A stretch of DNA of 32,000 nucleotides. It comes from Acaryochloris thomasi RCC1774 (GTDB lineage Bacteria > Cyanobacteriota > Cyanobacteriia > Thermosynechococcales > Thermosynechococcaceae). Of this stretch, positions 6,201 to 30,600 are shown piece by piece. Positions within the stretch are counted from its first letter, which is position 1, and every line of letters begins with the position of its first letter. Below the pieces are notes generated by a model that worked only from the letters and a program-made list of their open reading frames with translations, was not told the origin of the DNA and did no database searches. A program made the translations under genes and the position numbers. The stretch is taken from positions 120,001-152,000 of the forward strand of contig NZ_PQWO01000009.1 in assembly GCF_003231495.1 (NCBI RefSeq), read 5' to 3'.

Positions 6201-9200
6201 GTCTGATGTTGAAATAGTTGTTTCGGCGTGAGCTGCAGGCCAGCTTGGGTTGCCCTCGACACCACCTGCAAGCTCAGAATAGAGTCTCCACCCAGCTCAA
6301 AAAAATTATCATCAATGCCAATAGAGGACACGTTCAGGAGCTGTGACCAGATATCAGCTAACAATTGCTCCGCAGTTGTCTGAGGAGGCTGCTGCTCACG
6401 TTTGTCTGACTCAAAGTGAGGCGGTACTAATGCCCGACGGTCGATCTTCCCATTGGGAGAGAGAGGAAGCTGTAGCAAAGGCACAAAAATCCCAGGCACC
6501 ATGTAGTCTGGCAACTTGGGCGCTAGCCACTTCTGTAGTTCCGCTATCTTCAGTTCACGCTCTAAAACGCCATAGGCCACAAGCTGTTTTGCCCCGGAGG
6601 GCGCGGTGTGGACCTTGACCGCAACTTCTTTAATCTGTGGGTGCTGCTGTAGGGTTGCTTCAATCTCGCCTAGCTCTATCCGTAACCCCCGAATCTTGAC
6701 TTGATGATCAATACGGCCCAAAAACTCCAGCACCCCTGTGGGTAGATAACGCACTAGGTCGCCGGTTTTATACAGCCGTGCCCCCGATTGATCGCAATAG
6801 GGGTCGGGGATGAATTTCTCTGCTGTGAGACCCGGACGATTGAGGTACCCCCGCGCCAAACCAATGCCCCCAATATGCAGCTCTCCCGGCACACCAATAG
6901 GGACGGGATGGAGAAACTGATCTAAAACGTGAAGCTGAATATTAGCGATCGGATATCCCAGCGGAATACTGAGCTGTTGATCGCTGGCTTGGCAGTGCCA
7001 ATGGCTAACGTCAATGGCTGCTTCCGTAGGGCCATAGAGGTTATGAAGTTGGGCTGGTAGATGCTGTTGAAGCTTCTCTTGCAGAGCGACGGGTAGCGCT
7101 TCGCCACTGGCAATCACGGTTTTGAGACAGGAGCATTGTTCAACATCAGGCGTTTCTAAAAAGGCGGAGAGCATCGCCGGAACAAAGTGGATTGTAGAGA
7201 TCTGCTCAGCCTTAATACAGTTGATCAGGTAGGTGCTATCCCGATGGCCTCCTGGCTTAGCCACCACTAACTTGGCTCCGGTCATTAAAGGCCAGAAAAA
7301 TTCCCATACCGACACATCGAAACTGAAAGGGGTTTTCTGCAAGACATGATCGGTTGCATCTAGAGCAAAGGTCTCCTGCATCCACAGCAATCGATTGCAG
7401 ATGGCCGCATGGGTATTCATGGCTCCCTTGGGCTTGCCGGTGGAGCCTGATGTGTAGATGACGTAGGCTAGGTTCGCTGAATGAACTGAACTGTGGAGGT
7501 GGGTTTGGGGCTGTGTGGCAATCTGGTCCTGTTCAAGGGGCAAGCAGGGGACATTCTCGGGTAGACGAGATCGCAACGTCTCCTGCGTCAGGACAAGCGC
7601 GGGCTGAGCATCGGCCACCATATAGGCGATTCTTTCTGCCGGATAGTCTGGGTCGAGAGAGACATAGGCACCGCCTGCTTTGAGAATGCCGAGCAGCGCA
7701 ACCACTAGATCTAGCGATCGCTCTAGGAAAACCCCGACCAGGATATCTGGGCCAATGCCCCTTTCTTTGAGGGTGTGGGCAAGTTGATTGGCGCGAGTAT
7801 CTAACTCTCTATAAGTGAGGGATTTTTGGGTTCCGTTTTCTTCAAGAGAAGCGAGGGAGGTTGCGATCGCATCCGGCGTCCGATCAACCTGCTGTTCAAT
7901 CCAAACATGAAGCGGCTGATCAAGTGGATAGCGGGTCTGGGTTTGGTTCCACTTCTGACGCTGTTCTAAATCGAAAGGTGTCAACAGCGGCAGATCACTA
8001 AGATTTGCTTGAGGATGCTCAACAATTCCCTCCAGCAAAGTATGCCAATGAGCCAACATCCGCTTGATGGTGGCGGAACTATATAAATCGGTGCTGAACT
8101 CCATCAGAGCAGTGAGGCCGTTATTCTGCTCTATACAAATCAAGGTCAAATCAAACTTGGTGGTGTGGGTGTCGTAGCGCAGGGGGGTGAGGGTCAGCCC
8201 TGGAACGGTTAAGGAGGTGGTGGGCACATTTTGTAAAATCAGCATCACCTGAAACAGTGGCGAGTGACTAAGATTACGCAGAACATCCAGCTCGTCTATG
8301 AGTTTTTCGAAGGGTAGATCCTGGTGACCGTAGGCCCCTAGCGTTCGCTCTCGAACTTGCTCTAGCAATTCTTTGAAGGTGGGATTGCCGGATAAATCGG
8401 CTCGCAGAGCCAGGGTATTGAGAAAAAAGCCGATCAGCCCTTCGATTTCTATCTGGTTGCGATTGGCAATGGGAGTACCCACCGTTATATCGGACTGGTG
8501 GGTGTAGCGGTGCAGCAAGACTTGAAAGCTTGCCAGCAAAACCATAAATAGGGTGCAGTCTGTCTCTTGAGCGAGTTGCTCTAGGGCTGCTGTCAACGGT
8601 TCAGGCAGCTCAATAGTGCAGCAATCGCCTTGGTAGGTTTGCTGAGCGGGACGAGGCCGATCTGTTGCAAGAGCTAGAACCGGCGGCAGGGTTTCAAACT
8701 GCTGTCGCCAATAGTCGAGCTGTGTTTCTAGACGCTTTGTTTGGTGCCGCTGCCAGTGGGCAAAGTCGGCGTACTGCATCGGTAAGGGAGGCAAAGCCAC
8801 AGGTTTTGACTGAAGAGCCGAGGTGTAGAGAAGCGCCAGTTCCCGGACAAAAATGCCTGTTGACCAGGCATCAGAAATGATGTGATGGAGCGTAAATAGC
8901 AGAACTGATTCTGCGGCAGAAAGCCCGATCAGCGTGACGCGCAGCAATGGTCCTTTACTGAGATCAAAGGCTTTTGCACCATCTAGAATGGCTAATCGCT
9001 CAATCTCTTGTTCTTGGCCTGCTTGAGATAGCTTCGATAAATTGATCTGCTCAATAGGGAAGCAATCCCATCTTGCGGTACTCTCCCCCCAGAGTTGGGG
9101 GGCCGGGGGGGCGAGTGCAACACCTTTGAAATCATTATTTAGATGCGGATGAATAATCTGCTGAGGCTGTTCGTCCACCGTGGCAAAAGTCGTCCGCAGA

Positions 9201-9520
9201 ATTTCGTGTCGGTCCACCATCTGATTGAGTGCCTGCTGGAAGGCATCAATATCAAGATCTCCCTCTAATCGCAGAGCAGTGGGAATGTTGTAGAAGGGAT
9301 GATTGGGTTCAAGCTGGGTCAGAAACCAGAGCCGCTGTTGCGAAAAAGATAGCGGTGCTGATGTTTTTGAAGGCCGCTGCGGAATGATGGCGCGAGGTTT
9401 CCTCTCTCCTCGGAGTCGCTTTGCGAGTAAGGCACGTTTGGCCGCTGAAAGCTGAGCTGTATTAGCTGGCATTGAGCTGCTCCTCTGCTTCGTCGTCGCT
9501 GAGAGCTTCAATTTCCGCAA
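3224..9520 (-). CDS. Non-ribosomal peptide synthetase, C-A(Ser)-T-E-C
   Basis: 2098-aa ORF. Motifs: C (HHIISDAWS); A (LAYVIYTSGSTGKPKG; code by eye DVWHISLIDK, Ser-type); T (FFELGGDSILSLQV); E (LLPIQHWFFEQ, HHLVVDGISWRIL); DCL-type C (LYPLSPAQQGILFH, HHLILDGWS). It ends after the C domain with a basic tail and no T or TE. An alternative start ATG at 9472-9470 (MPANTAQLSAAKRALL...) would cut the overlap with the upstream gene from 59 to 11 nt. The true start is undecidable from sequence alone. Confidence 0.95.
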   Translation of the reverse strand: MRKLKLSATTKQRSSSMPANTAQLSAAKRALLAKRLRGERKPRAIIPQRPSKTSAPLSFSQQRLWFLTQLEPNHPFYNIPTALRLEGDLDIDAFQQALNQMVDRHEILRTTFATVDEQPQQIIHPHLNNDFKGVALAPPAPQLWGESTARWDCFPIEQINLSKLSQAGQEQEIERLAILDGAKAFDLSKGPLLRVTLIGLSAAESVLLFTLHHIISDAWSTGIFVRELALLYTSALQSKPVALPPLPMQYADFAHWQRHQTKRLETQLDYWRQQFETLPPVLALATDRPRPAQQTYQGDCCTIELPEPLTAALEQLAQETDCTLFMVLLASFQVLLHRYTHQSDITVGTPIANRNQIEIEGLIGFFLNTLALRADLSGNPTFKELLEQVRERTLGAYGHQDLPFEKLIDELDVLRNLSHSPLFQVMLILQNVPTTSLTVPGLTLTPLRYDTHTTKFDLTLICIEQNNGLTALMEFSTDLYSSATIKRMLAHWHTLLEGIVEHPQANLSDLPLLTPFDLEQRQKWNQTQTRYPLDQPLHVWIEQQVDRTPDAIATSLASLEENGTQKSLTYRELDTRANQLAHTLKERGIGPDILVGVFLERSLDLVVALLGILKAGGAYVSLDPDYPAERIAYMVADAQPALVLTQETLRSRLPENVPCLPLEQDQIATQPQTHLHSSVHSANLAYVIYTSGSTGKPKGAMNTHAAICNRLLWMQETFALDATDHVLQKTPFSFDVSVWEFFWPLMTGAKLVVAKPGGHRDSTYLINCIKAEQISTIHFVPAMLSAFLETPDVEQCSCLKTVIASGEALPVALQEKLQQHLPAQLHNLYGPTEAAIDVSHWHCQASDQQLSIPLGYPIANIQLHVLDQFLHPVPIGVPGELHIGGIGLARGYLNRPGLTAEKFIPDPYCDQSGARLYKTGDLVRYLPTGVLEFLGRIDHQVKIRGLRIELGEIEATLQQHPQIKEVAVKVHTAPSGAKQLVAYGVLERELKIAELQKWLAPKLPDYMVPGIFVPLLQLPLSPNGKIDRRALVPPHFESDKREQQPPQTTAEQLLADIWSQLLNVSSIGIDDNFFELGGDSILSLQVVSRATQAGLQLTPKQLFQHQTIRSLAQVAGTVPVIKAEQAVAGNSSLLPIQHWFFEQALPNPDHWNQAVLLKVPSSLTFVELQRCVERLVQHHDGLRSQFSPTQFSPTQSHWTQTIPESTNEILCQEISLTSLPPEQQSLAITETAAQVQSSLNITVGPLLQIALFRTAPQEADRLLITIHHLVVDGISWRILLDDFQALLKQQNLPPKTCSARQWNQQLKGYDALAQKDFWLQQGVEATPLPIDFSDGSNTYATRRTHEIQLSTAETTTLLQRVPKAYSATINDLLVAALVRAITQWSKQPTLRIDFEGHGRADLGIDISRTVGWFTTLYPVQFDLSDAAELSTALKTIKEQLRQVPDQGLGYGVLRYLARDAELQSQAPAPIRFNYLGQFELGTDALFSVAPESMGPLKGLDNPCTHALTVDAEITAGQLTLRFGYSQAQYRAATIETMAMSFCGELRSQLSHCLDPNNCGFTPSDFPLAPIQQRQLDHLITAKGKIADLYPLSPAQQGILFHTLYAPNSGLYITQFSYKLKGNLNVNALQQAWQAVIDQHPALRTAFVWEGLDQPLQYVEPQVSLPWTTIDLVPSDASSRDDQNPPILGDLGFDMSSAERGQRSNIASQQHSLEQSLGKILYDDRVEGFALDQAPLMRVQLVRLSEDTHELIWSFHHLILDGWSLPLVLQTVFQHYGALEKSQSFAALTPCPYRDYIHWLSKQDQDQATQFWRQYLQGFSSPTSLGGKTNPILGSRADREQGYTCLEYVVSEEVSITLQEFSQRHRLTTNTLAQGAWGILLSHISAQQDVVFGATTAGRPPELVGAEQMVGVFINTLPVRIQIEPELEILSWLMALQQQQITVRQYEYSSLTQVQQLTAVSKGTSLFESLLVFENYPVDASAFQNMPASVRLQDFRSTSNNSYPLTVRVLPGASLKLEMMVDLTRFQTSQIERWLQQFATVLRQMTDSQTTVGHLLNNLQVEQQQNQNQQMQTLETSSLSKLKRVRRKAVAPDNQEVSS
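4440..4480. repeat. Possible heavily decayed relic of the same element in the DCL C domain
   Basis: aaatctcccaaaattggaggattttgatcg resembles tttccccccagaattggggggctagggggg with many GC-to-AT changes. The host peptide NPPILGDLG echoes SPPILGGK. The surrounding loop is about 25-30 aa longer than in sister C domains of this cluster. Confidence 0.3.
4870..6130 (-). other. Epimerization domain
   Basis: LLPIQHWFFEQ and HHLVVDGISWRILLDDF. It is preceded by a GGDSI-type T domain and followed by a DCL-type C domain (roughly 3330-4850). Confidence 0.85.
5939..5968 (-). repeat. Tandem 2 x 15-nt in-frame duplication (QFSPT-QFSPT) in the E domain
   Basis: The minus strand reads caattctctccgaca followed by caattttccccgacc. 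The three differences are all third-position and synonymous. The repeat directly abuts a HIP1 site at 5968-5975. Confidence 0.8.
9075..9119 (-). repeat. Solo arm of the G6/C6 palindromic element (copy A), in frame inside the first C domain of the 2098-aa NRPS
   Basis: ctctccccccagagttggggggccgggggggcgagtgca at 9081-9119. Across the G/C runs and hairpin it matches the arm at 19639-19678 except for one loop base, and the outer 8 nt also differ. No recognisable partner arm lies within 100 bp. Host translation is VALAPPAPQLWGES. Confidence 0.7.
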
Positions 9521-12500
9521 TTAAGACTTCTTCAATGACGTCGGCGATTTCTGCGACAGTATGGGCGTCAAACAGCCGTCTTAGAGGTAGCTCAATCTGA
9601 AAGGTTTCCCGCAGGCGGGACAGCACTTGAGTGGCGAGGAGGGAATGACCGCCGAGGTCAAAGAAGTTGTCGGTGACGCCGACGGTCTCGAGCTGGAGAA
9701 TGTCGCACCAGATAGTTGCGATCGCAACCTCAGTCTCAGTCCTGGGGGCCACAAAATTCTGACTTAACTCTGGCCGTACCTTCTCTGGGATCGGCAGCGC
9801 CTGACGGTTCACCTTACCGTTAGTGGTCAAGGGCAAGATCTTCAGCACTACAAGCAAACTCGGAATCATATAGTCCGGGAGCTGGGTCTGCAGATACTGC
9901 CGCAGGTCAGCCGTATCCGTCACGGTTTTGGTCCTCACAACATAGGCAACCAGCATCGGATTGTCTCGCTGATCTTCACGGACCACGACCACCGTTTCTT
10001 TTACGGCGTCGTGCTGGGTCAAGACGGCCTCAATTTCACCTAACTCAATCCGAAAACCATGCAGTTTGACTTGCTGATCGATTCGTCCCAAGAATTCATA
10101 TGAACCGTCGGGCAGCAGTCGAGCGCGATCTCCGGTTTTATAGAGTCGCTCTTCAGCACTATTTATCCCAACGGGAAGAGTAATAAATCGCTCAGTTGTG
10201 AGCTGAGGGCGATTGAGATACCCTCGCCCCACCGTTCGCCCTCCGACATAAACTTCTCCTGGCACTCCGATGGGGACGGGCTTTTGATGAGCATCTAGCA
10301 CATAAACTTGAACACCATCAAGGGGAATGCCAAGGGGAACGGTGGCACTGATGGCTTCTGCAATGGATTCGGTCGTTACGGCCTCGGTCATCACCCCTAC
10401 CGTTGTTTCAGTAGGGCCATAGTGATTGAAAATCTGACAGTGGGGTTGCAGCGCCATAATGCTCTCAATCAATGACCAGCGGCAGACTTCTCCCCCTAAA
10501 ATCAGTCGCTGTTGCGGCAGAACGCCAGAAGGACTTGGCCCCTTTAAGAGTGCCTGTAAATGAGAGGGGACTATTTTCAAGCAAGCAATCTGTTGTTGTT
10601 GACAGTAATCGGCAAAAGCTTGGCTATCGCAGACGCGCTCTGTTGCCAGTAGATGCAGCGTTCCCCCCTGGCAGAGGCTCGGGAACAGCATTGTATGCCC
10701 AAGGTCTGCCGCTAGCGTAGAGACAGAGGCATAGCTAGCGGAGGGAGGGAGCTGCAGGCGCTCAATGATGCCGTAAACATAGGTCATTAACTGACGGTGT
10801 TCCACTGCAACAGGCTTGGGTTGCCCTGTGGACCCTGAGGTATAGATTAGATAGGCCAAATTTTCGGGCGTGGCCTGACTCTGCGGCGGTTTGATTGGAT
10901 ACTGCTGGAGCCGTTCTTGTTCTGCTTCTAAGCAAAAGATAGGGGGGGAATCAGACGGTAAATTGGGCAGCAGCTCCGTTTGGGTAATGATGACGGGGAC
11001 TTTTGCATCCTCCAGTCTAAACGCTAGTCCTGCTGTTGGTAAGGCCGGATCAAGGGGCAAATAAGCGCTGCCTGATTTGAGAATGGCTAGAATTGCGACG
11101 ACGGCATCCACCGAACGTTCTAAATACAGTGCTACAGGGATATCGGGGCCAGCGCCACAGTGCTGCAGCGCATGGGCCAGTTGGTTGGCCCGTTGTTCTA
11201 GAGCCTGATAGGTAAGCTGCTGTTCTTCATACACGACCGCAGTTTGGTTGGGTTTCTGCAAAGCCTGCTGAGCAAATTGCTGATGGAAACAGTCGAGGAG
11301 TTGGGTTCCTGGATCAATTTTTATAGGGCTGGGCAGCTCCTCTTGCTTGAGTGTGAGAGGAATGTTGCCAAGTGATTGTTCTGGATTCTCTAGCGCATGA
11401 GTCAGTACTGCCTGCCACTGACTTGTAAATATCTTGATGGCCTCTTGCGATAGCAAACTGGAGCTGTAATAGAGTGCAGCCTTGAAGGTATTACCTTGGG
11501 CAGTACAGGTTAAATGGAGAGGAATATTACAACTTCCCCAGATCCGGTCAATCTCAAACGCTAAATCTCCCGCAGAGAGAAGCGGAATTGTCTGATACTC
11601 AAAGCCCACGGAATGCTTTTGCTCAACGCCAGGGAAGTAGTCCTGCCATTCTTCAAGCTGCTCCCATTCTTGTTGAACGTGTTGAACTAAGGTTGCAAAG
11701 GATATCGATTCAGAGAGACATCCCAGAAAAGGAAGAGGTTGCTGAAAGGCTCCGATGCCTGACTCAAGTTCTGGGTCAGAGCGATGTTGGGGAATGACTC
11801 CGATGGTGAAATCGGGTTGTTCTGTCTGCCGCCACAGCATCACTAGCCAACTGGCAAGCAGAATTGCACCAGAATTCGGCGAGGAACTAAGCTGTTCCTG
11901 CACAGATTTTGATAGCTGAATTTTGTGGACTTCAGTTTGATTGTCAGAAGGTGCATTCCTCCGACTCAAAGGAGCCGAGAGCGATGGCAGCTCTACTCGC
12001 CGTTGCCAAAAATCTTGTCCAGCGCTGGCTTCTTCATCATTCTCTAGGGACTGCTGCCAAGTTACGAATTCAGAAAATTGAACCAGCTCTTCAGAGTCGG
12101 TGAGTCTCTGTCCACCATAATGTTGCGCTAACTCAGTGACTAAGAGATGCAGGCTGTGATGGTCTGCACAGAGGGCGGGTACGGTCAGAAGTAGCCAATA
12201 TTCTTTGGCTTGCCCTCCTAAAACGGCTTTAATGACCGGGAGCTGTTCTAAGGTGTGGGGCTGTTGGCGAATGTCTGCAATGGCTTGCTCTAGAGTGATG
12301 TTTTCCTCAACACGCTGCAAACTTACAGGGGCTTGGGGTTCCACCACTTGGAGAGGCATCGTCAGCGTGGCCGGTTGGCGAAAGATCGTCCTCAAGCTTT
12401 CGTGACGTTTAACAACGGTCTCCAAGGCTTGACGAAGTTTTCCTCTATCGAGGTCTCCCTTCAATGACACAAGAATCTGATTGCAGTGAGCCTGCTCTGT

Positions 12501-12566: not shown

Positions 12567-12569
12567 GGG

Positions 12570-21488: not shown

Positions 21489-24400
21489 GATTGGCTCCCT
21501 GGCGCGATCGTTTCTGGCTCTGCAATATCGGCTAGTTCCGCCAGCAGCTCCTCATTGACTTGGGCTGCTAACCCCTCAGCAATTGCGGTCGCAATAGTGG
21601 CTACCGTGGGGTCTTGGAAAAGCAATCGCAACGGCACTTCCACCTGAAATGTTTGGCGGACCCTAGCCATGAGTTGTGTGGCGAGCAGGGAATCTCCCCC
21701 CAGCTCAAAGAAGTTGTCGAGAACGCCCACCTTGTCCTGCTGGAGCAGATTAGCCCATAGGTCCGCTACCGCCGTTTCTAAAGCATTTCGAGGAGCAACA
21801 TAGCCCACAGAACTAGCGAGGGGACTCTCTACCCAGAGCGTTTGTAAATGGCGGCGATCCACTTTGCCATTGGCATTAAGGGGCAAAGCGTCCAAACAGA
21901 GGAACCCTTCTGGCACCATGTAGTCGGGAAGTTTTTGAGCTAAAAATTGAGTGAGCACTGAGGCTTGCCCGCTCGAACTTGGATCACCGGCTCCGTCCTG
22001 TCCTCCAGGCTCCTGGTCAGATGGCAACTCTTTAAGGACAATGCAGGCCACTAGCTTTTGTGGACTAGCCCCAATCACTAGGGCCGCCGCTGCACTCACA
22101 TCAGGATGCTGCTCTAGTGCCGTCTCAATTTCACCCAGCTCAATACGATATCCGCGCAGCTTCACCTGCTGATCTTCTCGGCCTAAAAATTCAATCTCAC
22201 CGTCCGGTCGATAGCAGCCCAAATCACCTGTTCGATACAGGCACTCTCCAGAAATAGGATGGGCAATAAAGCTGGCTGCGGTTTTCTCTGGCTCACCCCA
22301 ATACCCCTGAGCGAGACCTGAACCGCCAATATACAAGTGTCCGGGTACCCAAACTGGGCAGGGATTCAGGTGCTCATTCAATACATAGAACTGCTGATTC
22401 CTCATGGCACGACCGTAGGGAATGCTGCGCCAGCTTGGATCAATCTCGTTAATCGGGTAGAGAATAGACCAAATTGAAGCTTCCGTGGCACCGCCGAGGC
22501 TGATGATTTGGCTCTCAGGGCAAACCGCTCGAATCTTCTCTGGCAGTGCCAGGGGTATCCAGTCGCCACTCATTAGGATCAGTCGCAAAGATTGCAGGGA
22601 CTCTGGCTCACGGGTAATCAGCATCTGCATCAAAGCAGGCACCGTATTCCAAATCGTGACCTGATGTTTCTCAATCAGGCGTACCCAAACGGCTGCATCT
22701 TTCACATCCCGAGCAGCGGGAATGATCAATGTTCCGCCAGCGGCAATAGTGCCGAAAATATCGTAGACCGACAGATCAAAGCTAAGGGAAGATAGGGCTA
22801 AGATTCGATCCTGAGGGGTAATCTCAAAGCGATGATTGATATCTTCAATCGTGTTCATGGCTCCTTGATGATCGATCATCACGCCCTTAGGGGTGCCCGT
22901 TGAACCCGAGGTATAAATTACGTAGGCCAAGTCAGTGGGCTTTTGCAGAGGCGTGAGCGGTGCATCGTATTCTTGCCGTAACGCTTCAGAATCGACCGCA
23001 ATAATCTGAATTTGGACCGGCCATGCCATTCCAGACTGCAAATGATTTTGGCTGAGAACCCACTTGATATTGCCCTGATCCAAAAGGTGATCACGTCGCT
23101 CCATCGGTAGGGCCGGATCAATTGGTACATAGGCTGCACCGGCCATTAAAATGCCGTATACTGCCACGACCTGTTCCCATCCCTTTTCCATTGAGATAGC
23201 AACTAGCTCGTTGGCCTGCACACCCAAACGACGCAATCGCTGACCGACCTGCTGGGCGCGCTGGCACAGTTCACCGTAGGTTAACCGCAGCGTGGGCGTA
23301 ATGACAGCTAAATGCTGGGGCTGATGTTGTGCTTGGGAGACTAAACCGTCCTGGAGTAACGCGGTGGTCAAGGGGGCTTGAGTGCTTTGGGGCTGAACGT
23401 GAGTGATGGGGAGCGGCTGTGTCTCCTGCCAAGTCTGAGAATGGAGTGCTAGTTTTTCTAGCAGTTGGCCATAGGCCGAGAACATAGCATCCACCATCCC
23501 GTCGGGGAATAGACCTTCAACCACGTCCCAGTTGTAGACCAGTTCATCGTCTTCTTCGTAGACTTGATGATCGAGCCAAACCTGCGGCGTTTGGGCAATG
23601 CTGTGGACAAGCTTGCCCAGCCAATCGGTGTTAAAGGTAGAGCTGTTTTGAAGCTGTGGGTTGGCTAACAGGCTGGTAAACACAACAGGCATGGCAACTT
23701 GTTCTTGCGTTTGCGCCATCATCTCTCGCAGAACGCTGACCCCACTAACGAGGCTGTGTTCGAGATCTTGCCAGAGCTGGTTTTGGAGCTGTTGCGATCG
23801 CACCTCAAAAGTCCCCACTTCTCTATAGTCAACCGCTAGCAAAGTCAGTGAAGTGAAATCACCTACAAGACTCTGCACCTGCGGGTGAATAGGGAGTCGA
23901 TTAAACGTCGTGAGGTTAACGCAGAATCGTCGAGACTTGCTCCAGATCGCTAAAATCTCGGTATAGGCGGCCAGCAATGCCCCAGAGGGTGTGAGGCCCA
24001 GTTGTGTTGCTTGCTCTTTCAACAACTGCCACTGGTCAGCAGATAGCCTTGCGGTGCGGCGCACAAATCGAGGTCGAGTTATTTGTGCCGGTGCTACAGC
24101 TAGAGGAAGTTCTGGAGCTGAAGGTAAGTCTTGGAGTCGGGCCTGCCAATAGTTTTTAGACTGTAAATACCGTTCTGAAGGTTCAAAGGACTGCAGCGCC
24201 AGCACGTAGTCCCGAAATGAAAGCTTCAACGTGGGTAAATCATTATCTAACGATGTATAAAAATGCCCCCATTCCCGACAGATAATCCCGAGGCTGGCAC
24301 CGTCTACCAGCAGGTTATCAATGCTGAGAAAAACGTGAACGGTCTGCTCATCCAAGCGGGCTAGGCAGACCTCGAACAGCGGCCAAGCGTGGGGATCGAG

Positions 24401-27400
24401 CATTTGATGCGAAAGGCGATCGCGCAGTTGTTCAAGTTGCTGTTGTTTCAGGTCACTAGATAGAGAACGCCAGTCTAGAACGCTCATCTCGTAGGGCGGC
24501 AGATCTGCGAGCACCTGCTGCTGACCGTCAGGCAAAATCACCGTTCGCAACACGGGGTGGCGATCAATCACCTGTTGGAAAGCTTGCTGCAGGCGGTGGC
24601 AATCTAATTCCTGCCCCTCGAATTCTGCATAGACATGGGCGGCAATGTTCCCCATTTCAAAGGCACCGCTTCGGCCAATCCAGTAGGCAGTCTGAATATC
24701 GTTGAGCGGGAACGGCTGGTGACGCTGCGTGGGATTGAGTTCAATGTTGGGTAAGGTCTCGACCATGCCATCTAAATTGGCTAGAATCTGAGTCGCTAAG
24801 TCGGCAATGGTGGGACTGGTCAAGAACTGAACCAAGGGCACTGAATAGCCGAACTGCTTCTCTAGATCAAATTTGATCTCGGTGGTCATGATCGAATCGG
24901 CAGCCAAAGAACTAAGCGGTGTCGTGGCCGTAATTTGTTTTGGGTTTATGCCAATGGCACGGGCAAACCGTGTCTTTAAATCGCGCTCTAATTCGGCTTG
25001 ACGTTGTTCAGGGTTAAGAGAGGCAAAACTTTCGCGCGAAATTGCGGTCTCAGTGACTTTTGCAGATGGGGTAGGGCTGACCCTAGCACCCGAGGTGGCG
25101 AGATAGCTCCAATACCGCTGCCGCTGAAATGGATAGGTCGGCAATGGAATCCGTTGATGTTTAAAGCCGCGATAAAAACTGTCCCAATCAACTGTAAACC
25201 CCTGTTGATAGAGCTTTCTTAGGCTTAGCAGAATGTTGTCTGGCTGAGCTGCGATGGTCCAGTGGTCGCAGGTTCCCCAGCTTTGGGGCAGGTTGCCCAT
25301 AATCAGAAACTGCTCTGGCCCTTGAGGGGGTGCGATGGTCTGCCGATCGCCAGATCGAAGCCAGTCTAATAGGGTGGCGGTATCGACGGGCGTATCCGTT
25401 GAATCGCTGTAGAGAATGCCTGTGGCAGGCTGCAGTTGTTCGATGGGTGTTGCTTTGATAAGCCAGTGGAGGGCTTGCTCTAAGGTGAAGTATCCGGCTT
25501 GGCAGGCTGCGATTGTGCTTCCCATCAATCCACTCGGCTGAAAACCCCAGGATTGCCACAGTTCAGCAAGGGCGTAGGGCAACACAAAATTCAGAATGTC
25601 TGGATCTGACGTGGATTTGAAATCAATCAGATCTGCTTTTAGCTCTGACAAAATCTGGTTGGCTTGGTCAATGGTGGCCCGGAACACCGGATAAGTTTCA
25701 TAGAGTTGTTGGCCCCAAGTCAGGCTCTGCTTTTGTTCTGAAGGGAAGAAGAAAATTAGGTCGGGTGTTGTTTGTTGTATAGAAGATGAATCTACAGTGT
25801 ATAAAGATGTTTCGGAACTACCTTGAAGAGCTTGCGCTGGCCCCCCCGGCCCCCCAACCTTAGTGGGAGAGTCGCTGACGTTGGTTTGCTTTCCCCCCAG
25901 AATTGGGGAGCTAGGGGGGCAATGCAGGGTTGACTGGTTTTCCTCTAGTGATTTATATACATCGTTAGAGTACTGGGCTGTATTATTAGTTTCTAAATAT
26001 TCCTCTAGCGCTTGCTGTAGTTGGGGTATAGAGTTAACGACAAATGTACATCGATGGAGGAAGTGAGATCGCCCCACCCCTGCTGTAAAACAAAGATGAC
26101 CCAAGTCAGTCTCAGGGTGCGCCTGCAAAAACTGAAGATATCGATGAATCAGCTCGACCAAAGCCCCAGGAGTCTTTGCAGACAGAGGCAATAGATATAA
26201 AGGTCGTGTTTCTGATTGAACCGTTACAGTTGGAGCAGATTCCAGAACGGCATGGGCATTAGTCCCACTCATGCCAAAGGAGTTGATACCTGCAAGCTGT
26301 GGCCCCGAATGCTGAGGCCAAGGCGTTAGCTCAGTGGGAATTTTGGCCGGAATTTCACCTAGATCAATCTCAGGATTGAGGGTCTTTAAATTTAGATGGG
26401 GCGGCAGTTGCTGATGCTGCATCGATAGCACGACCTTGAGCAAGCTTGCCATCCCCGAAGCGGTCTCGGTGTGGCCGATGTTGGTCTTTACCGATGCGAT
26501 GTGGAGCGGGTCTTGTTGCGATCGCCCTTCTTTAAACACCTGACTCAGCGCCCGAACTTCAATGGCATCTCCCAGCGGCGTCCCTGTTCCTTGTGCTTCG
26601 ACATACTGAATCGCGCTAGCGGCCACGTTGGCCTGTGCCAACGCCGCTCGAACCACCGTCTGCTGAGCTGCACCATTGGGGATCGTTAATCCTCCACTGG
26701 CACCGCCATGATTGCAGGCCGTCCCTTTAATGACGGCCAAGATATTGTCGCCATCGGCTTGAGCATCTTTGAAGCGCTTGAGGGCCACGACCGCACAGCC
26801 TTCAGAGCGTACATAGCCATCAGCAGCAGCATCAAAGGTCTTGCAATGGCCGTCTGTCGCCATCATTCGGGTTGCAGAGAAGACGATATTTGATTCTGGC
26901 GAAAGCAGCAGATTCACGCCCCCCGCTAAAACCAAATCGCATTCTTCGTTACGCAAACTCTGACAACCCAAATGGACTGCCATCAATGAAGATGAACAGG
27001 CCGCATCAAGGGCCATATTCGGGCCCTGCAGCCCTAAAACATAGGACAACCGTCCTGCAGCAAAACAGAAACCACTTCCGGTCCCCGTGTAAGCATCAAT
27101 TCCTTCAGGGGTCTTGGCCTGCAGATTCGCATAATCGGAGGTGCCAATGGCAACATATACACCTGTTCGGCTCCCTTTGAGCTGCTGTGGTGCATAGCCT
27201 GCTCGTTCAAGCGCCTCCCAACTGACCTCTAGCAAAAGGCGCTGCTGCGGATCCATTGCAGTGGCTTCACGAGGACTAATGCCGAAAAAATCGGGGTCAA
27301 ACTGATCCACCTGATCTAAGAAACCGCCATGTCTGGTGTAGGTTTTCCCAGGCACGCTGGGATCGGCATCAAAATAAGCATCTACATCCCACCGCTGCTG

Positions 27401-27652
27401 AGGGACTTCTGTAATCGGGTCACGGCCCGACTGGAGTAATTGCCAATAAGCCTCTGGATCGTTGACGCCACCAGGAAATCGACAGCCCATGCCGACAATC
27501 GCGATTGATTCAGGCTGCTTTAGAGTCTCTAATTCCTCATGCAGCTCGTAGGCTAAAAGCGCAAGCCGTTTGGGAGAGAGGGTTTTAATGTGGTTGAGAA
27601 AATCACTCACTGGGGTCTTGCCTTGCAAATTTTTCGTCAAACAGCCGATCAA
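21485..27652 (-). CDS. Hybrid PKS/NRPS, KS(QGTGT variant)-AT remnant-ACP-Cy-A(Cys)-T
   Basis: 2055-aa ORF. KS: IAIVGMGCRFPGG, DAACSSS, NIGHTETASG. Degenerate AT. ACP: LSSLAADSIMT. Cy: FPLNDIQTAYWIGR, DNLLVDGAS. A: LAYVIYTSGSTGTPKG, SGDWIP, SLGGATEASIW; code by eye DLYNLSLIWK (Cys). T: FFELGGDSLLATQL. An alternative GTG start at 27610-27608 would reduce the overlap with the upstream PKS from 50 to 8 nt. Confidence 0.95.
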   Translation of the reverse strand: MIGCLTKNLQGKTPVSDFLNHIKTLSPKRLALLAYELHEELETLKQPESIAIVGMGCRFPGGVNDPEAYWQLLQSGRDPITEVPQQRWDVDAYFDADPSVPGKTYTRHGGFLDQVDQFDPDFFGISPREATAMDPQQRLLLEVSWEALERAGYAPQQLKGSRTGVYVAIGTSDYANLQAKTPEGIDAYTGTGSGFCFAAGRLSYVLGLQGPNMALDAACSSSLMAVHLGCQSLRNEECDLVLAGGVNLLLSPESNIVFSATRMMATDGHCKTFDAAADGYVRSEGCAVVALKRFKDAQADGDNILAVIKGTACNHGGASGGLTIPNGAAQQTVVRAALAQANVAASAIQYVEAQGTGTPLGDAIEVRALSQVFKEGRSQQDPLHIASVKTNIGHTETASGMASLLKVVLSMQHQQLPPHLNLKTLNPEIDLGEIPAKIPTELTPWPQHSGPQLAGINSFGMSGTNAHAVLESAPTVTVQSETRPLYLLPLSAKTPGALVELIHRYLQFLQAHPETDLGHLCFTAGVGRSHFLHRCTFVVNSIPQLQQALEEYLETNNTAQYSNDVYKSLEENQSTLHCPPSSPILGGKQTNVSDSPTKVGGPGGPAQALQGSSETSLYTVDSSSIQQTTPDLIFFFPSEQKQSLTWGQQLYETYPVFRATIDQANQILSELKADLIDFKSTSDPDILNFVLPYALAELWQSWGFQPSGLMGSTIAACQAGYFTLEQALHWLIKATPIEQLQPATGILYSDSTDTPVDTATLLDWLRSGDRQTIAPPQGPEQFLIMGNLPQSWGTCDHWTIAAQPDNILLSLRKLYQQGFTVDWDSFYRGFKHQRIPLPTYPFQRQRYWSYLATSGARVSPTPSAKVTETAISRESFASLNPEQRQAELERDLKTRFARAIGINPKQITATTPLSSLAADSIMTTEIKFDLEKQFGYSVPLVQFLTSPTIADLATQILANLDGMVETLPNIELNPTQRHQPFPLNDIQTAYWIGRSGAFEMGNIAAHVYAEFEGQELDCHRLQQAFQQVIDRHPVLRTVILPDGQQQVLADLPPYEMSVLDWRSLSSDLKQQQLEQLRDRLSHQMLDPHAWPLFEVCLARLDEQTVHVFLSIDNLLVDGASLGIICREWGHFYTSLDNDLPTLKLSFRDYVLALQSFEPSERYLQSKNYWQARLQDLPSAPELPLAVAPAQITRPRFVRRTARLSADQWQLLKEQATQLGLTPSGALLAAYTEILAIWSKSRRFCVNLTTFNRLPIHPQVQSLVGDFTSLTLLAVDYREVGTFEVRSQQLQNQLWQDLEHSLVSGVSVLREMMAQTQEQVAMPVVFTSLLANPQLQNSSTFNTDWLGKLVHSIAQTPQVWLDHQVYEEDDELVYNWDVVEGLFPDGMVDAMFSAYGQLLEKLALHSQTWQETQPLPITHVQPQSTQAPLTTALLQDGLVSQAQHQPQHLAVITPTLRLTYGELCQRAQQVGQRLRRLGVQANELVAISMEKGWEQVVAVYGILMAGAAYVPIDPALPMERRDHLLDQGNIKWVLSQNHLQSGMAWPVQIQIIAVDSEALRQEYDAPLTPLQKPTDLAYVIYTSGSTGTPKGVMIDHQGAMNTIEDINHRFEITPQDRILALSSLSFDLSVYDIFGTIAAGGTLIIPAARDVKDAAVWVRLIEKHQVTIWNTVPALMQMLITREPESLQSLRLILMSGDWIPLALPEKIRAVCPESQIISLGGATEASIWSILYPINEIDPSWRSIPYGRAMRNQQFYVLNEHLNPCPVWVPGHLYIGGSGLAQGYWGEPEKTAASFIAHPISGECLYRTGDLGCYRPDGEIEFLGREDQQVKLRGYRIELGEIETALEQHPDVSAAAALVIGASPQKLVACIVLKELPSDQEPGGQDGAGDPSSSGQASVLTQFLAQKLPDYMVPEGFLCLDALPLNANGKVDRRHLQTLWVESPLASSVGYVAPRNALETAVADLWANLLQQDKVGVLDNFFELGGDSLLATQLMARVRQTFQVEVPLRLLFQDPTVATIATAIAEGLAAQVNEELLAELADIAEPETIAPGSQS
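23408..24721 (-). other. Heterocyclization (Cy) domain
   Basis: FPLNDIQTAYWIGR at the N-terminus. DNLLVDGAS (24293-24319) matches the DxxxxDxxS motif that replaces HHxxxDG in Cy domains. Confidence 0.85.
25109..25765 (-). other. Degenerate, internally deleted acyltransferase remnant plus post-AT linker
   Basis: FFFPSEQ stands in for the GQGSQ start. LWQSWGFQPSGLMGSTIAACQAG stands in for the GHSxGE active site, which is shortened and lacks His. Only about 95 aa follow before the post-AT linker LYQQGFTVDWDSFY...LPTYPFQRQRYW, and no HAFH/YASH region is visible. Confidence 0.75.
25833..25927 (+). repeat. G6/C6 palindromic MITE-like element, complete short copy, partly decayed (copy D), in frame in the KS-AT linker
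   Basis: Sequence: tgcgctggcccccccggccccccaaccttagtgggagag + core + tttccccccagaattggggagctaggggggcaatgcag. Host translation is HCPPSSPILGGKQTNVSDSPTKVGGPGGPAQAL. Confidence 0.75.
26228..27511 (-). other. Ketosynthase domain with Cys-Gln-His instead of Cys-His-His
   Basis: The active-site Cys codon is at 26996-26998 (DAACSSS). The expected EAHGTGT reads EAQGTGT, with the Gln codon CAA at 26591-26593 (plus-strand ttg). The second His is retained in NIGHTETASG. Confidence 0.85.
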
Positions 27653-30600
27653 CGTCGTCGTCTGAGAGCTGTGAAATCTTGTCTAAGGTCGTCTCCGCAA
27701 CGGGGGCGGTTGCCGGAACTGACGGTGCTTCCCAGCCCAGCGTCGATTTGGCGAGATAGGTCGCCAAAGCATTGACGGTGGGATGCTCAAAGGCGGCCAC
27801 GGCGGGAATCGTTTCGCCCAGGCTGGTTTCTAGGTGATTTTTGACTTCTAGGGCCATGAGCGAATCCATGCCGCTTTCAAACAGTCCGCGATCAGGATCG
27901 ATGGCACTCGGAGACGAAATCCCCATCACCTGAGCCACAATTGCCTGGACATGGTTTTTGAGAGCCTGTAGTCGAGCTGCGGGGGGCAAGGCTTCCCAGT
28001 CTTGAAGTAGAGCTGGAGGGGGTTGGGAGTCTGAAGCTGAAGCTTGATTAGCAACATCAGCAAGCAGGGGTTGTGATTTAGCAGTAGGGAATAGATCAAA
28101 AAACTCTGACCAAGGCACGGGTAAGAATGCAATCTGTCCCTGCTCGTGCATGAGTTGCCCTAATGCCTGAAGTCCCTGCTCTGGTGTCAGAGTCCAGGAT
28201 TCGGGAAGGAGACGTTGTCCGGCTTTGATGGAACGCGATCGCAACCCAATCTCAGACCAATCTCCCCAGTCAATACTGAGGGCTGGTAAACCCAATGACC
28301 GTCGATGATGAGCAAGGCTATCTAAATAAGAATTCGCCATGCTGTAGCCGCTGAGCTGTTGCCCGACGGAACCCAGTAAACCTGCCCAAGAGGAAAACAG
28401 AACAAAGTAATCGAGGGATTGTTCTGCAAAATACTGATGGAGATTCCAGGCTCCTGCAGCTTTGGGACTCAGGATCTTGTCTAGCTGTTCTAAATCAACC
28501 TGCTCTATTGGAGCAAGCTGGGGTGGCTCCATTGCTAAGTGAAAAACGCCCTGAATAGGTGGCACATCGACGGACTCGATCTCTTGGGCTAGCTGCTCGG
28601 GGTCCGCGACATCTGCTGTGGCGAGATGAACCTGGGTTCCTTGGGCTTCAATGGCCTGAATCGCTTGAATCTTCTGGAAAGCTGTATCTTTGCTAGGGAG
28701 AGACAGCCATTGATGACGAGGTGGTAGAGACGTGCGACCTAATAGGATCAGATGCTTAGCACCTTGTTCTGATAGCCAGGTCGCGACCCGTAGACCTAAA
28801 TCGCCGAGACCGCCTGTGATTAGGTAGCTGGTAGCTTTGATCTGGGCTGAGTTCTGGGCTAGAGCCGCTCGGTACGGGGTGAGGTGAGGTGAAAAACTTT
28901 GGTTCTGGCGAAATGCGATTTTTCCATGCTGCATTGTCCTTCCAGGTTTGGAAGGAGAGACCCGAGAGTCCATCTGCTTTCCCCCCAGAATTGGGGGGCT
29001 AGGGGGGCCAGTGAAATCCTGCCGGGAAGTGTCCCGATCTAGATAGGCATCATTCGTTCTGCTTTGTGTGTTCTCTATTTCTAAGTTCTGCCCAGGAAGC
29101 ACTTCGCTCTGCGTTGGCCCCCCCGGCCCTCCAATTCTGGGGGGAGAGTGCCTGGAGTTGGTTGGTTTTTTCCTAAGATGGGGCTGAATACTTTGCAGCA
29201 GATCGGCTGCCGCTTGAGAGACGGACGCTGCTGGATCTAAATCAATGAGACCGCCGTACCGCTGGGGTTGCTCGACCGCCAACACTTGGCCTAAGCCCCA
29301 CAGCATTGATTGCGTGGCGTTGGTTTGACTCTCCGCAACTGACTGACTGCCCTGCGTCACTAGCCAGAGTGGAGTCTCAACATTGGCAGCTTCCATCGCC
29401 TGAATTAACGCTACAGGTGTGGCTGTATTCCAGGACGTTTCCAGGGGTGACTGATTCAGATCGTTCAATCCCCATAGGTAAACCACCCCTCGATAATCAT
29501 CAGAGGTCGATGAAGTAAACAGAGACTGAAATGAGGTCAGATCCGCTGAGTCTGTTTCAATGATTTGGCATATTTCCCCTCGAGATTGAAGCAATTCCGC
29601 AAAGGCTTTTCCGATACCAGCGAGATCGCAAAAAACAAGCCAAGTTCCGGGCTGTTGGCTGCGTTGACTAGAAGCCACTAGCACCGCTTGCTGAGATAGA
29701 CCGTCACGATTGGCTGCGATGATCTCAGCATCAAACTGGTTAGCCTGGAGCAGTTGCTGCCATTGTGCTGAACTAATTAGCGGATAGCTGGGTCTCAAAT
29801 CAGTATCGGTAAACGACCACCATCCCGGCGTCAGACCAAAAATCAGATCGAGCCAAGCCTGGGGTTCCATTCCCTCTAGCGCAATCAAGAGACCACCCGG
29901 TTCTAAGAGTTGGTGGATATGCTCCACAGTTTGCTGGAGATCGGCGGTGGCATGAAGGACGTTGGCAGCCAAAATGATGTCAAACGACTGAGACTCAAAT
30001 CCTTGTTCACTGGGTGCCTTTTCAATATCCAGCAGCCGATAGTCTATGAACGGATAGTCAGCAAACTTCTCTTCTGCCTTGGCGGTGAATAAAAAGGAGA
30101 CATCGGTGAAGGTATATTCAGTCCTGTAGCCGGGAAGCTGGGGCAAAACGTAGGCTGTTGTCCCGCCGGTACCTGCCCCAATTTCTAGAATTCGAATGGT
30201 GCGATCTGTAGGGAGATCTTGGATGGCGGTTGCGATCGCATCGACAACCCACTGATTCGCCACCTGAGCCGCCGGAGAATCTTGATACAGCGCCTCAACA
30301 TCGGCAACCGATCCGTCAGGGAACAATAGATTGAGCGGATCTTGGCCCTGCAAAACCGACGCTAATCCCTGTCCACATCGCCCCAACAAACTGATCTCAG
30401 CCTGACAAGCCGGATAATGAGTTTGAAGACCTTGAAGACGCTGGGCTGGCGCTTCAAGGGTGGGCACCTTCTTGATCTGCCATTGGTTTGCCCCTTGAGC
30501 AATGAGAATATCTTGCTCCGTCAAAACCTCAATCAGGCGATGCAGGAGCCGGTGATGCTGGGGCTGGATCTGCTGCCGTAGGGCAGCAAAAGGAAACGGC

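Follow-up and report, generated by a model that had tools for sequence, protein, structure and literature searches.

The Rickettsia palindromic elements (RPEs; Ogata et al. 2000, 2002, as summarized in PMC10969869 and PMC3733652) are gene-less palindromes of ~100–150 nt, which according to these summaries occupy intergenic positions and also lie in frame within unrelated functional genes, where they are thought to be located at surface positions that the fold can accommodate. Intragenic GTAG/CGTC REPs lie inside open reading frames and leave the frame intact, presumably in loops or linkers (PMC3733652), and in-frame REPs occur in cyanobacterial tnpA_REP genes (PMC6006769). Bacterial MITEs, including Nezha in cyanobacteria, Correia and ERIC, occasionally form in-frame fusions with host ORFs, and MITE insertions that inactivate the gene are known from cyanobacterial toxin synthetase (mcy) clusters (PMC10969869, PMC3184786).

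We analyzed a 32,000-nt stretch of the Acaryochloris thomasi RCC1774 genome (contig NZ_PQWO01000009.1, positions 120,001–152,000; hereafter the window), in which a siderophore assembly line very probably carries, in frame within its coding sequence, inserted copies of a palindromic repeat element that is non-coding and non-autonomous. Like the RPEs, as these are summarized in the sources above, it is a small gene-less palindrome with genic and intergenic copies, in which the element rather than the peptide is conserved, supporting the choice of RPEs as the closest analogue in the first-pass annotation of this DNA. The sequences are unrelated and the host phyla differ. While each RPE family is summarized as giving one conserved peptide in one frame, the present core is read in five of six; in addition, at least six copies occupy one gene cluster, and the core, a conserved centre with variable ends, is common to many genera and even phyla. 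The annotator knew of no such case in cyanobacterial NRPS/PKS genes, and none of the papers searched describes in-frame palindromic elements in them.

The host genes (2172–31976, minus strand) constitute a cyanochelin-type hybrid NRPS/PKS siderophore cluster (Table 1). The orthologous proteins belong to the cyanochelin B clusters of Leptolyngbya NIES-3755, Myxacorys and Phormidesmis, and the NIES-3755 cluster has been experimentally validated (PMC12628792). The cluster is also syntenic with the orthologous locus L122, where a TonB receptor with an AMIN domain lies upstream.

Table 1 Host genes, inserts, arms and core matches in the window. Domains were assigned with Pfam.
Feature	Position	Strand	Size	Domains or site	Arms	Core matches
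ORF	2172–3227	−		TauD
ORF	3224–9520	−		C-A-T-C...
ORF	9462–12566	−		C-A-T
ORF	12570–21488	−		C-A-T-C-A-T-C-TauD
ORF	21485–27652	−		KS...C-A-T
ORF	27603–31976	−		luciferase-like, DH, MT, KR, ACP
Insert A	9062–9136	−	+25 aa (NDFKGVALAPPAPQLWGESTARWDC)	N-terminal lobe of first condensation domain, ORF 3224–9520	single, 9079–9124 (E = 1e-6 vs external profile)	9085
Insert B (best-preserved copy)	14727–14879	−	153 nt = 51 aa	directly after RHEILRTTF motif, third C domain, ORF 12570–21488	14736–14774; 14786–14833	14752(−); 14794
Insert C	~19533–19678	−	~146 nt, ~48 aa	adenylation motifs A2–A3, module 1, ORF 12570–21488	19636–19682 (strong); 19529–19557 (weak, diverged partner)	19643
Insert D	25798–25959	−	162-nt element; 192 nt extra vs L122	past KS C-terminal linker domain, ORF 21485–27652	25828–25857 (weak); 25885–25931	25893
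Inserts E2+E1	28920–29180	−	jointly 261 nt = 87 aa	linker immediately upstream of KR Rossmann motif, ORF 27603–31976	E1 28974–29020, degenerate partner 28929–28956; E2 29105–29151; E1/E2 boundary within 29021–29104	28981; 29127(−)

The window contains seven matches to the core CCCCCC-AGAATT-GGGGGG (CCCCCCAGAATTGGGGGG, ≤2 mismatches), where chance predicts 0.01, and none of 100 shuffled windows reached this number. An nhmmer profile built from 130 arms, all from other genomes and none from the window, detected seven strong arms (E = 2e-13 to 1e-6) and the weak partner arms of C (matched at 19534–19555) and D (matched at 25831–25857), and no others in the window. Complementarity is, for example, 93% between 14742–14770 and 14793–14821, and 98% between 19635–19678 and 29109–29152. 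All copies lie within four of the minus-strand ORFs, starting at 3224, 12570, 21485 and 27603. The recurrent hairpin, the arms as inverted repeats of each other, and the in-frame position of every copy within one of four giant ORFs, as described in the first-pass annotation, are thus borne out, and the peptides quoted there are correct on translation. The sites given for the copies were also right, but not their extents, the inserts being larger (75–260 nt).

The cluster contains at least six in-frame insertions, adding ~270 aa in loops and linkers. Comparison with orthologues, which had been proposed as a check, and with paralogues identified these segments as extra DNA. Insert A is extra relative to six paralogous C domains and the NIES-3755 orthologue, and insert C relative to five paralogous A domains and NIES-3755. 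Site B is empty in the alignment of Rubidibacter lacunae and seven other orthologues, site D is empty in L122, and E1 and E2 are both missing from P0121, P0122 (L122) and all distant orthologues. In NIES-3755, whose cyanochelin B cluster has been validated, all insert sites are empty. As single-stranded DNA, inserts B and C each retain a fold of −37 kcal/mol (z = −5.6 and −5.3, respectively), whereas the hairpin is lost in A (z = −0.8) and decayed in D (z = −0.4). We infer solely from the preserved reading frame that the inserts are transcribed and translated into Pro/Gly-rich segments. These probably form disordered excursions: in the AlphaFold model of insert B, pLDDT is 29–42 inside the insert and >84 on either side, within a confident C-domain fold.

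The copies are not all of one age, and the sequence of old ones decays as that of an unconstrained linker would, although they remain in frame. Insert A is present in L121. L122 carries insert C in decayed form, with 65.3% identity against 77.5% in its flanks, and the only indels are of 27 and 3 nt; the same locus lacks D and E. Both E1 and E2 are found in L124 (P0123), and D is probably there too, as the L124 contig terminates within an element at the equivalent position; in L125, E2 is only partial and E1 is deleted. D (probably), E1 and E2 thus occur in the more distant L124, yet are missing from the closer L122, a pattern that requires these sites to have been either emptied precisely or entered more than once.

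It is highly improbable that the inserts are excised on the way to the mature protein, in the manner of introns or inteins, or that they are assembly artefacts. Processing of the strong B and C hairpins is conceivable in principle, but an Rfam search returned no match and no intein or intron features were found; moreover, frame and freedom from stops are kept over long divergence, which argues against removal, since a removed sequence would not need them. Such repeats do break short-read assemblies, as the end of the L124 contig illustrates, but independent assemblies share the inserts at identical sites.

The search of other genomes, which the first-pass annotation had proposed, showed that the motif is abundant there and mostly intergenic. 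In genome sequences, 120 loci contain 133 exact cores between them, and the CCGG subtype was found in 62 further metagenome loci. Altogether the same core is present in >180 loci, mostly cyanobacterial; most of the genome copies are taken as intergenic because the median open span is 90 codons. The family is restricted neither to megasynthases nor to cyanobacteria: in-frame copies occur in other Pfam-confirmed genes encoding an NRPS (L016), a PUFA-type PKS (L156), a P-type ATPase (L051), NadB (L185), proline dehydrogenase (L186), an nSTAND-WD40 protein (L102) and others. Four reading frames of the core are used in the window and five of six across genomes in Pfam-confirmed genes; the sixth is represented by one unverified open stretch only (L181).

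These data bear on the reading of the repeats as a conserved Pro/Gly-rich linker motif of the synthetases rather than inserted DNA. Every copy in the window is in frame and gives a P/G-rich, linker-like peptide, as that reading would predict; it is nevertheless contradicted by the multiple frames, the intergenic copies and the insert-free orthologues and paralogues, and two copies lie within catalytic domains rather than linkers, so that we give it practically no credence. Conservation at the level of DNA rather than peptide, as the first-pass annotation had argued, is consistent with all of these observations, and the occurrence of the family elsewhere, the empty sites and the many frames support its view of the repeats as selfish or mobile, MITE-like DNA carried in frame.

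Full-length intergenic copies are long hairpins of 150–170 nt with terminal inverted repeats. Their conserved centre reads GCCCCCC-(CTAG/CCGG)-CCCCCC-AATTCT-GGGGGG, then a spacer, then CCCCCC-AGAATT-GGGGGG-(CTAG/CCGG)-GGGGGGC, and with its outer inverted repeats a complete copy is more than the arm, core and inverted arm described earlier. These outer repeats vary by lineage, the one core being found in shells of at least three types; in the window, the outer flanks of insert B are similar to the L034-type shell and the outer ends of insert D to the CAATACTGTTCGGATAA shell of L065. Described in Nostocales (heterocyst-forming cyanobacteria), small dispersed repeats (SDRs) are reportedly very small repeats of 21–27 nt, nested inside larger cyanobacterial repeats, for which in-frame gene colonisation is not known to be a hallmark; by description alone this resembles the present core inside its several shells, and nesting of the SDR type could account for it.

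The first-pass annotation had described the element as stop-free. This is true of the ~40-nt CCGG arm, which is open in all six frames (the CTAG arm in four), but not of whole elements. The copies at its coordinates are open in two to four frames, except for copy A, which has one arm and is open in all six, whereas full-length relatives are open in none or one, no more than random DNA. The open frames in this cluster thus reflect purifying selection that determined which insertions persisted.

The intergenic copy L065 (−52 kcal/mol, z = −11) is flanked by a perfect 10-bp target duplication, ATGACCACCC, the sole clean one among the intergenic copies; no target-site duplication was demonstrable at the window copies. 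By analogy with MITEs, this duplication and its terminal inverted repeats suggest that the element is moved by a transposase acting in trans. With bacterial MITEs the element shares its small size, non-coding and multicopy nature, terminal inverted repeats, long hairpin and target-site duplication. It differs in that no parent IS is known and, relative to the mcy insertions, in that the synthetase genes are not inactivated and carry the inserts in frame. Its conserved centre within variable ends of at least three types is the opposite of a classical MITE. A search for an autonomous element with matching ends found none, and no mobilising enzyme was found either.

Concerning the mechanism only, a less likely alternative is that the element is a REP/REPIN, two inverted REP hairpins moved by a single-copy HUH tyrosine transposase (RAYT) and not by a DDE enzyme as a MITE would be. 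The element resembles REPs and REPINs as an inverted doublet of short G/C hairpins around a spacer, with solo arms common, mainly extragenic, conserved in the hairpin but not the termini, and bearing a palindromic tetranucleotide at each hairpin foot. RAYT subclasses 2.4, 2.7 and 2.8 occur in cyanobacteria, where in-frame REPs have been reported within tnpA_REP genes (PMC6006769), and precise excision by RAYT-type enzymes would account for the clean empty L122 site. However, the tetranucleotide is CTAG, TTAG or CCGG, while the GT[AG]G guide of known REPs (PMC6006769) is rare, and neither of the only two RAYT-like ORFs among the 120 loci (L021, L115) has the element at its flanks; no RAYT association was seen in the loci examined. 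Full copies are also longer than REPs and REPINs and carry terminal inverted repeats, and the long terminal repeats and the duplication of L065 are not products of HUH transposition.

We also considered that the inserts are useful, as flexible Pro/Gly linkers, ribosome-pausing mRNA hairpins, or portable homology for recombination and module shuffling. Several are retained in frame across 10–30% nucleotide divergence, and the core is conserved across phyla. In Moorena bouillonii, ORF L071 consists of the 5' half of an ATPase gene fused to cobN exactly at an element, which the intact ATPase gene L051 carries at the identical codon. Usefulness is nonetheless improbable, as the validated cyanochelin B producers have no inserts, close relatives have lost or deleted them, and old copies lose hairpin and peptide and evolve faster than their flanks. 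The peptides vary by frame, and hence no single protein feature is under selection.

In the model that we favour, the insertion of a mobile palindrome carried in frame, copies arrived at different times in at least six places of the cluster. Those seen today are the ones that kept the frame, had no stop in the frame in which they are read and lie in a tolerant location, namely two condensation-domain loops, the adenylation A2–A3 loop, the post-KS linker and the pre-KR linker. After insertion they would evolve as weakly constrained linkers, with G/C runs and hairpin eroding and indels remaining multiples of three. The inserts provide a natural map of insertion tolerance in the giant enzymes of this cluster.

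The first-pass annotation had described a G/C-run hairpin (core C6-AGAATT-G6, arms of a CCGG or a CTAG subtype) that recurs in the giant ORFs of the window. With up to two mismatches allowed, CCCCCCAGAATTGGGGGG matched the 32-kb window seven times, against 0.01 matches expected, and 0 of 100 shuffles reached seven. A window-independent profile, built from 130 arms all taken from other genomes, recovered seven arms (E = 2e-13 to 1e-6) and two weak partner arms, and no further arms in the window. A repeat finder connected the sites as both direct and inverted repeats, with inverted pairs at 14742-14770/14793-14821 (93% complementary) and 19635-19678/29109-29152 (98% complementary). The large ORFs are all on the minus strand and almost abut one another; every copy lies within four of them, as had been annotated, and the peptides quoted for the copies are true translations of these ORFs. 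Overlaps of 4 nt at 3224-3227 and 21485-21488 are typical of translational coupling, while the longer overlaps at 9462-9520 (59 nt) and 27603-27652 (50 nt) are due only to ORF calling from the first TTG or GTG; starting ORF 3224-9520 at an ATG 16 codons further in does away with most of its overlap.

Element inserts, large ORFs and TauD-coding segments of the window, and RAYT-like ORFs in loci from other genomes. Fold z-scores are for window copies folded as single-stranded DNA.
Feature	Position	Strand	Location or evidence	Extra sequence	Absent from	Fold z
Insert A	9062-9136	-	first C domain, ORF 3224-9520	25 residues	six paralogous C domains, NIES-3755 orthologue	-0.8
Insert B	14727-14879	-	third C domain, ORF 12570-21488, right after RHEILRTTF	51 residues (153 nt)	Rubidibacter, seven other orthologues, NIES-3755	-5.6
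Insert C	~19533-19678	-	between adenylation motifs A2 and A3	~48 residues	five paralogous A domains, NIES-3755	-5.3
Insert D	25798-25959	-	after KS linker domain	192 nt, 162-nt element within	L122	-0.4
Insert E (E2 and E1)	28920-29180	-	linker before KR Rossmann motif	87 residues, two elements	L122, all distant orthologues	-2.0 (E1)
Large ORF, free-standing TauD gene	2172-3227	-	ORF listing, Pfam
Large ORF	3224-9520	-	ORF listing
Large ORF	9462-12566	-	ORF listing
Large ORF	12570-21488	-	ORF listing
TauD domain at C terminus of 2972-aa NRPS	about 12570-13470	-	Pfam
Large ORF	21485-27652	-	ORF listing
Large ORF	27603-31976	-	ORF listing
RAYT-like HUH tyrosine transposase ORF	L021:2659-3204	+	NHYH...YIHLNP
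RAYT-like HUH tyrosine transposase ORF	L115 about 6945-7778	-	NHVH...YIHGNP

By their Pfam domains, the window ORFs encode a hybrid NRPS/PKS assembly line that includes two TauD-type hydroxylases. Among named proteins, the best homologues come from the cyanochelin B clusters of Leptolyngbya NIES-3755 (plasmid 2), Myxacorys almedinensis and Phormidesmis, and a Rubidibacter lacunae synthetase is also among them. The window genes are collinear with those of the cyanochelin B cluster on NIES-3755 plasmid 2 (locus L126), a cluster described along with its producers (PMC12628792). In an orthologous metagenomic cluster (L122), genes for a TonB receptor with an AMIN domain, for a periplasmic binding protein and for an MFS transporter lie directly upstream. 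The HIP1 octamer GCGATCGC is common throughout the coding sequence, for example at 12916-12948, 17774-17798 and 30229-30261. Homology, collinearity, the neighbours of L122 and the frequent HIP1 sites together point to a cyanobacterial cluster for a beta-hydroxyaspartate lipopeptide siderophore of the cyanochelin type as the predicted product. Short repeat families containing HIP1, such as TTGCGATCGCA, form a second repeat layer in the same genes, which is unrelated and already known.

Alignment with orthologues, as proposed in the first-pass annotation, and with paralogues yielded host domains without the insert at all five sites and defined the insert positions. Individual inserts span 75-162 nt, and element-derived residues over the five sites total about 270. 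At site E, L122 and all distant orthologues have about three residues instead. No convincing target-site duplication was found when both flanks of site D were compared with the empty site in L122. The sequence GGGAGCGGATGCA at the empty E site of L122 was considered as an element remnant and rejected, as it is host sequence that also occurs downstream of the inserts in L124, another orthologous cluster. Recombination between A and B as a route to module deletion was likewise rejected, because their arms in direct orientation are read in different frames.

The first-pass annotation had proposed a search of other cyanobacterial genomes, and this search found the family, mostly in intergenic DNA. 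Scanning species-representative genomes with the core 18-mer gave at least 120 loci with at least 133 exact cores; copies in the source genome were counted within the window. The matches listed come mostly from diverse cyanobacteria, including Moorena, Okeania, Pseudanabaena, Petrachloros, Phormidium tenue, Pantanalinema, Acaryochloris, Altericista, Waterburya and a Gloeobacterales MAG, and also include a Sericytochromatia bin and some Chloroflexota and Armatimonadota bins. Some genomes have several loci, with at least 8 in Moorena bouillonii PNG and at least 16 in Cyanobacteriota Co_metawrap_621. Conservation extends outside the query, to a second hairpin upstream, CCCCCAATTCTGGGGG, and to (C/T)TAGGGGGGC downstream. 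The stop-free span around a core has a median of 90 codons among the matches listed, and most copies are therefore intergenic. In metagenomes, a first, too specific pattern gave 0 matches, and a second pattern, for the CCGG subtype, added 62 further loci (L127-L188), mostly on contigs of 59-74% G+C, for which a cyanobacterial origin is unlikely. Conservation of the core reaches from Gloeobacterales to Moorena and includes non-cyanobacterial bins of high G+C, and the element crosses phylum boundaries. Carriage by phages is unlikely, since viral contigs gave one core match in 2.9 million. BLAST of a full element against a plasmid collection matched no plasmids other than two from Pseudanabaena, where the matching DNA is unannotated. 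The window matches no Rfam family, and the repeat was therefore rejected as a known structured RNA.

To identify coding hosts, long ORFs spanning a core were examined for Pfam domains. An NRPS (L016) carries two copies, one in the first C domain and one between the adenylation core and the C-terminal subdomain, right before RLYKTGD. A PUFA-type PKS pair (L156) has copies in the KR-DH linker and in the linker from the KS region to the FabA-like domains. In L-aspartate oxidase (NadB, L185), a doublet lies between the two domains; in proline dehydrogenase (L186), the copy is within the Pro_dh domain; and in an nSTAND-WD40 protein (L102), it occupies an inter-domain linker. Domains are split in a Moorena bouillonii P-type ATPase (HAD domain, L051), an FAD oxidoreductase (L113) and a DUF4347 protein (L093). 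The CCGG core in particular is in frame in metagenome genes that include the PUFA-type PKS, NadB, proline dehydrogenase and an O-antigen ligase. In-frame insertion is thus a general trait of the family.

These hosts read the core as PPRIGG, PPELGG, PQNWG, PPILGG or PQFWG, so that five of the six frames are in use in Pfam-checked proteins (the sixth occurs in the unverified ORF L181 alone), and four are in use within the window. A conserved protein motif is ruled out by this variety of frames, and the view that conservation acts on DNA rather than on peptide holds across hosts. The family had also been called stop-free, and this is true of the CCGG arm (39-40 nt), which is open in 6/6 frames, as are 3.6% of random sequences of equal length; for the CTAG arm the figure is 4/6. 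It is not true of the whole element: six complete intergenic elements have 0-1 open frames, where random sequence of equal length is expected to have 0.5-0.66. The window copies, at the extents originally annotated, are open in two to four frames, and the single-arm copy A in all six. Core composition helps openness, and the whole element is not built for translation. Since whole elements are as open as random sequence, the open copies in the window are survivors of selection.

In one further ORF of Moorena bouillonii PNG (L071:2269-6441), a heavy-metal P-type ATPase, present with its first ~557 codons, is fused to CobN, present with its C-terminal two thirds, and the junction falls exactly at an element copy. 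The intact ATPase of the same genome (L051:1733-4255) carries the same element at the same codon. The chimera either arose at the repeat, by recombination or duplication, or is an artefact of chimeric assembly.

Complete intergenic copies in Petrachloros, Altericista and Acaryochloris relatives are 152-165 nt long. Around the G/C core they carry outer inverted repeats (the shell) of at least three unrelated types, with CAATACTGTTCGGATAA...TTATCCGAACAGTATTG ends in L065 and L114, GTGTACACACA...TGTGTGTACAC ends in L019, L027 and L038, and GAGAnnnTTTGAAAAG-type ends in L034, L072 and L117. The L065 copy pairs end to end (-52 kcal/mol, z = -11) and is bounded on each side by ATGACCACCC, a perfect duplication of 10 bp. 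At L019 there is a direct repeat of 13 bp that is displaced by a few nt, and no clear target-site duplication was found in the flanks of the intergenic copies at L114, L034, L027 and L038. At L038 the palindrome goes on past the shell. In the window, copy B runs on into sequence resembling the L034 type and copy D into sequence resembling the L065 type, which accounts for the full inserts being longer than the arms first annotated. The onion-like nesting of one core in several shells suggests that the core may move independently of the shells.

The inserts were then compared among orthologous clusters. In L121 (GCA_039814705.1, Cyanobacteria bacterium P01_A01_bin.17; 90.5% nucleotide identity), insert A is at the same place and is 90% identical, against 93.5% for neighbouring sequence. 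On another contig of this MAG (L125), the E2 arm is kept, and E1 and the intervening sequence are absent; in place of the stretch from the E2 arm to the E1 end there are 23 nt of unrelated sequence, CTTCGACGTGAGCTCAGCCGAAC (L125:3426-3520). The L122 cluster is 74-82% identical to the window, with clean empty sites at D and E and a decayed copy at site C, CCTAGCTTCCCAATCTTGGGGAGAG, which is 65.3% identical against 77.5% for 600 nt on each side; its sole indels are of 27 and 3 nt. These differences among relatives show that the inserts entered at different times and that after entry they evolve faster than catalytic sequence with the frame retained, as a translated, weakly constrained segment would. 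The L124 contig, about 70% identical to the window, has both E elements and stops within an element at the position of site D (L124:10926-10945), as expected if the repeat breaks short-read assemblies. The inserts at sites D and E are thus common to the more distant L124 and missing from the closer L122, a distribution that implies either precise loss or repeated insertion at the same positions and is awkward for a simple tree. By folding, the window copies form a decay series, from B and C through E1 to A and D.

The third C domain including insert B, modelled by AlphaFold from a 32-sequence alignment, had a mean pLDDT of 79.7 and a pTM of 0.78. Residues 93-123, inside the insert, have pLDDT below 50 (10-residue blocks average 42, 29 and 29), and the flanking strands are confident, so that insert B is predicted to leave the fold, which is otherwise normal, as a disordered segment. 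Judged by position, the other insert sites are loops or linkers. The A2-A3 region and the pre-KR linker of NRPS/PKS proteins vary in length. If the cluster is active, its NRPS/PKS line tolerates 25-87 extra residues at five regions and represents a natural insertion-tolerance screen. These regions lie in C domains (directly behind the C2 motif, and one strand further on), between A2 and A3 of an adenylation domain, downstream of the KS linker domain and ahead of the KR Rossmann fold, all candidate sites for tags, linkers and domain grafts. The repeats also matter for sequence analysis: they break short-read assemblies of biosynthetic clusters, inflate apparent sequence divergence and split Pfam domain matches.

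This dispersed repeat, extra relative to orthologues, polymorphic among relatives, kept in frame and decaying, is probably mobilised in trans, and its coding copies are probably translated and tolerated rather than useful. No mobilising enzyme was found in the loci examined, nor any matching pair of terminal repeats enclosing an ORF or transposase. A search of the six frames of the 120 listed loci for HUH...Y motifs returned two ORFs resembling RAYTs, the REP-associated HUH tyrosine transposases; the nearest element is 2.3 kb (L021) and about 7 kb (L115) away, and neither ORF is flanked. The element resembles REPs and REPINs in its inverted doublets and solo hairpins, in the window and elsewhere. 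However, known REPs are defined by a GT[AG]G guide tetranucleotide (PMC6006769), whereas nearly all of the 133 listed copies have CTAG, TTAG, CCGG, CTGG or TCGG at the hairpin foot, and GTAG is found in one or two. It resembles MITEs in being small and non-coding, with intergenic full copies of MITE-like size and few open frames, in its terminal inverted repeats and in its many dispersed copies per genome. The terminal inverted repeats and the one clean 10-bp duplication would favour a MITE moved by a DDE-type transposase. Unlike a classical MITE, the element has a conserved centre and variable ends, and in this it is closer to a REPIN or to a small element lying within larger repeats.

The Rickettsia palindromic elements (RPEs), proposed as the closest analogue in the first-pass annotation, remain so functionally: the element too is inserted in frame in unrelated functional genes at structurally tolerant positions, at the window sites and elsewhere. 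Its hosts, however, are cyanobacteria and Chloroflexota-like bins, and as its consensus is unrelated to RPEs, the likeness is one of functional analogy only. In-frame palindromic repeats are established in Rickettsia, in-frame GTAG/CGTC REPs occur in several proteobacteria and others (PMC3733652), and in-frame repeats occur in cyanobacterial tnpA_REP genes (PMC6006769); cyanobacterial microcystin clusters have been inactivated by MITEs (PMC10969869). The literature searched described no in-frame repeats for cyanobacterial NRPS/PKS genes and printed neither the core nor any 12-14-nt part of it in a relevant context. We therefore rate the element as a further case of a known kind, apparently undescribed; small dispersed repeats (SDRs), Synechococcus MITEs and Anabaena MITEs were also considered for comparison. 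Its unusual traits are the breadth of core conservation and the number of insertions in one biosynthetic cluster.

For mobile-DNA biology, the finding adds a widespread element without a description in the literature searched. We consider it improbable that the recognised and moved unit is the conserved nested G/C palindrome rather than the entire 150-nt element, with the palindrome invading palindromic repeats and coding sequence in cyanobacteria and other phyla and contributing to module and domain evolution rather than being mere junk; a core that invades other palindromic repeats would explain one core in many shells. If so, megasynthases and other multidomain proteins would repeatedly gain new inter-domain linkers from it in nature, and it would supply recombination junctions as well, of which the Moorena bouillonii ATPase-CobN chimera may be an example.
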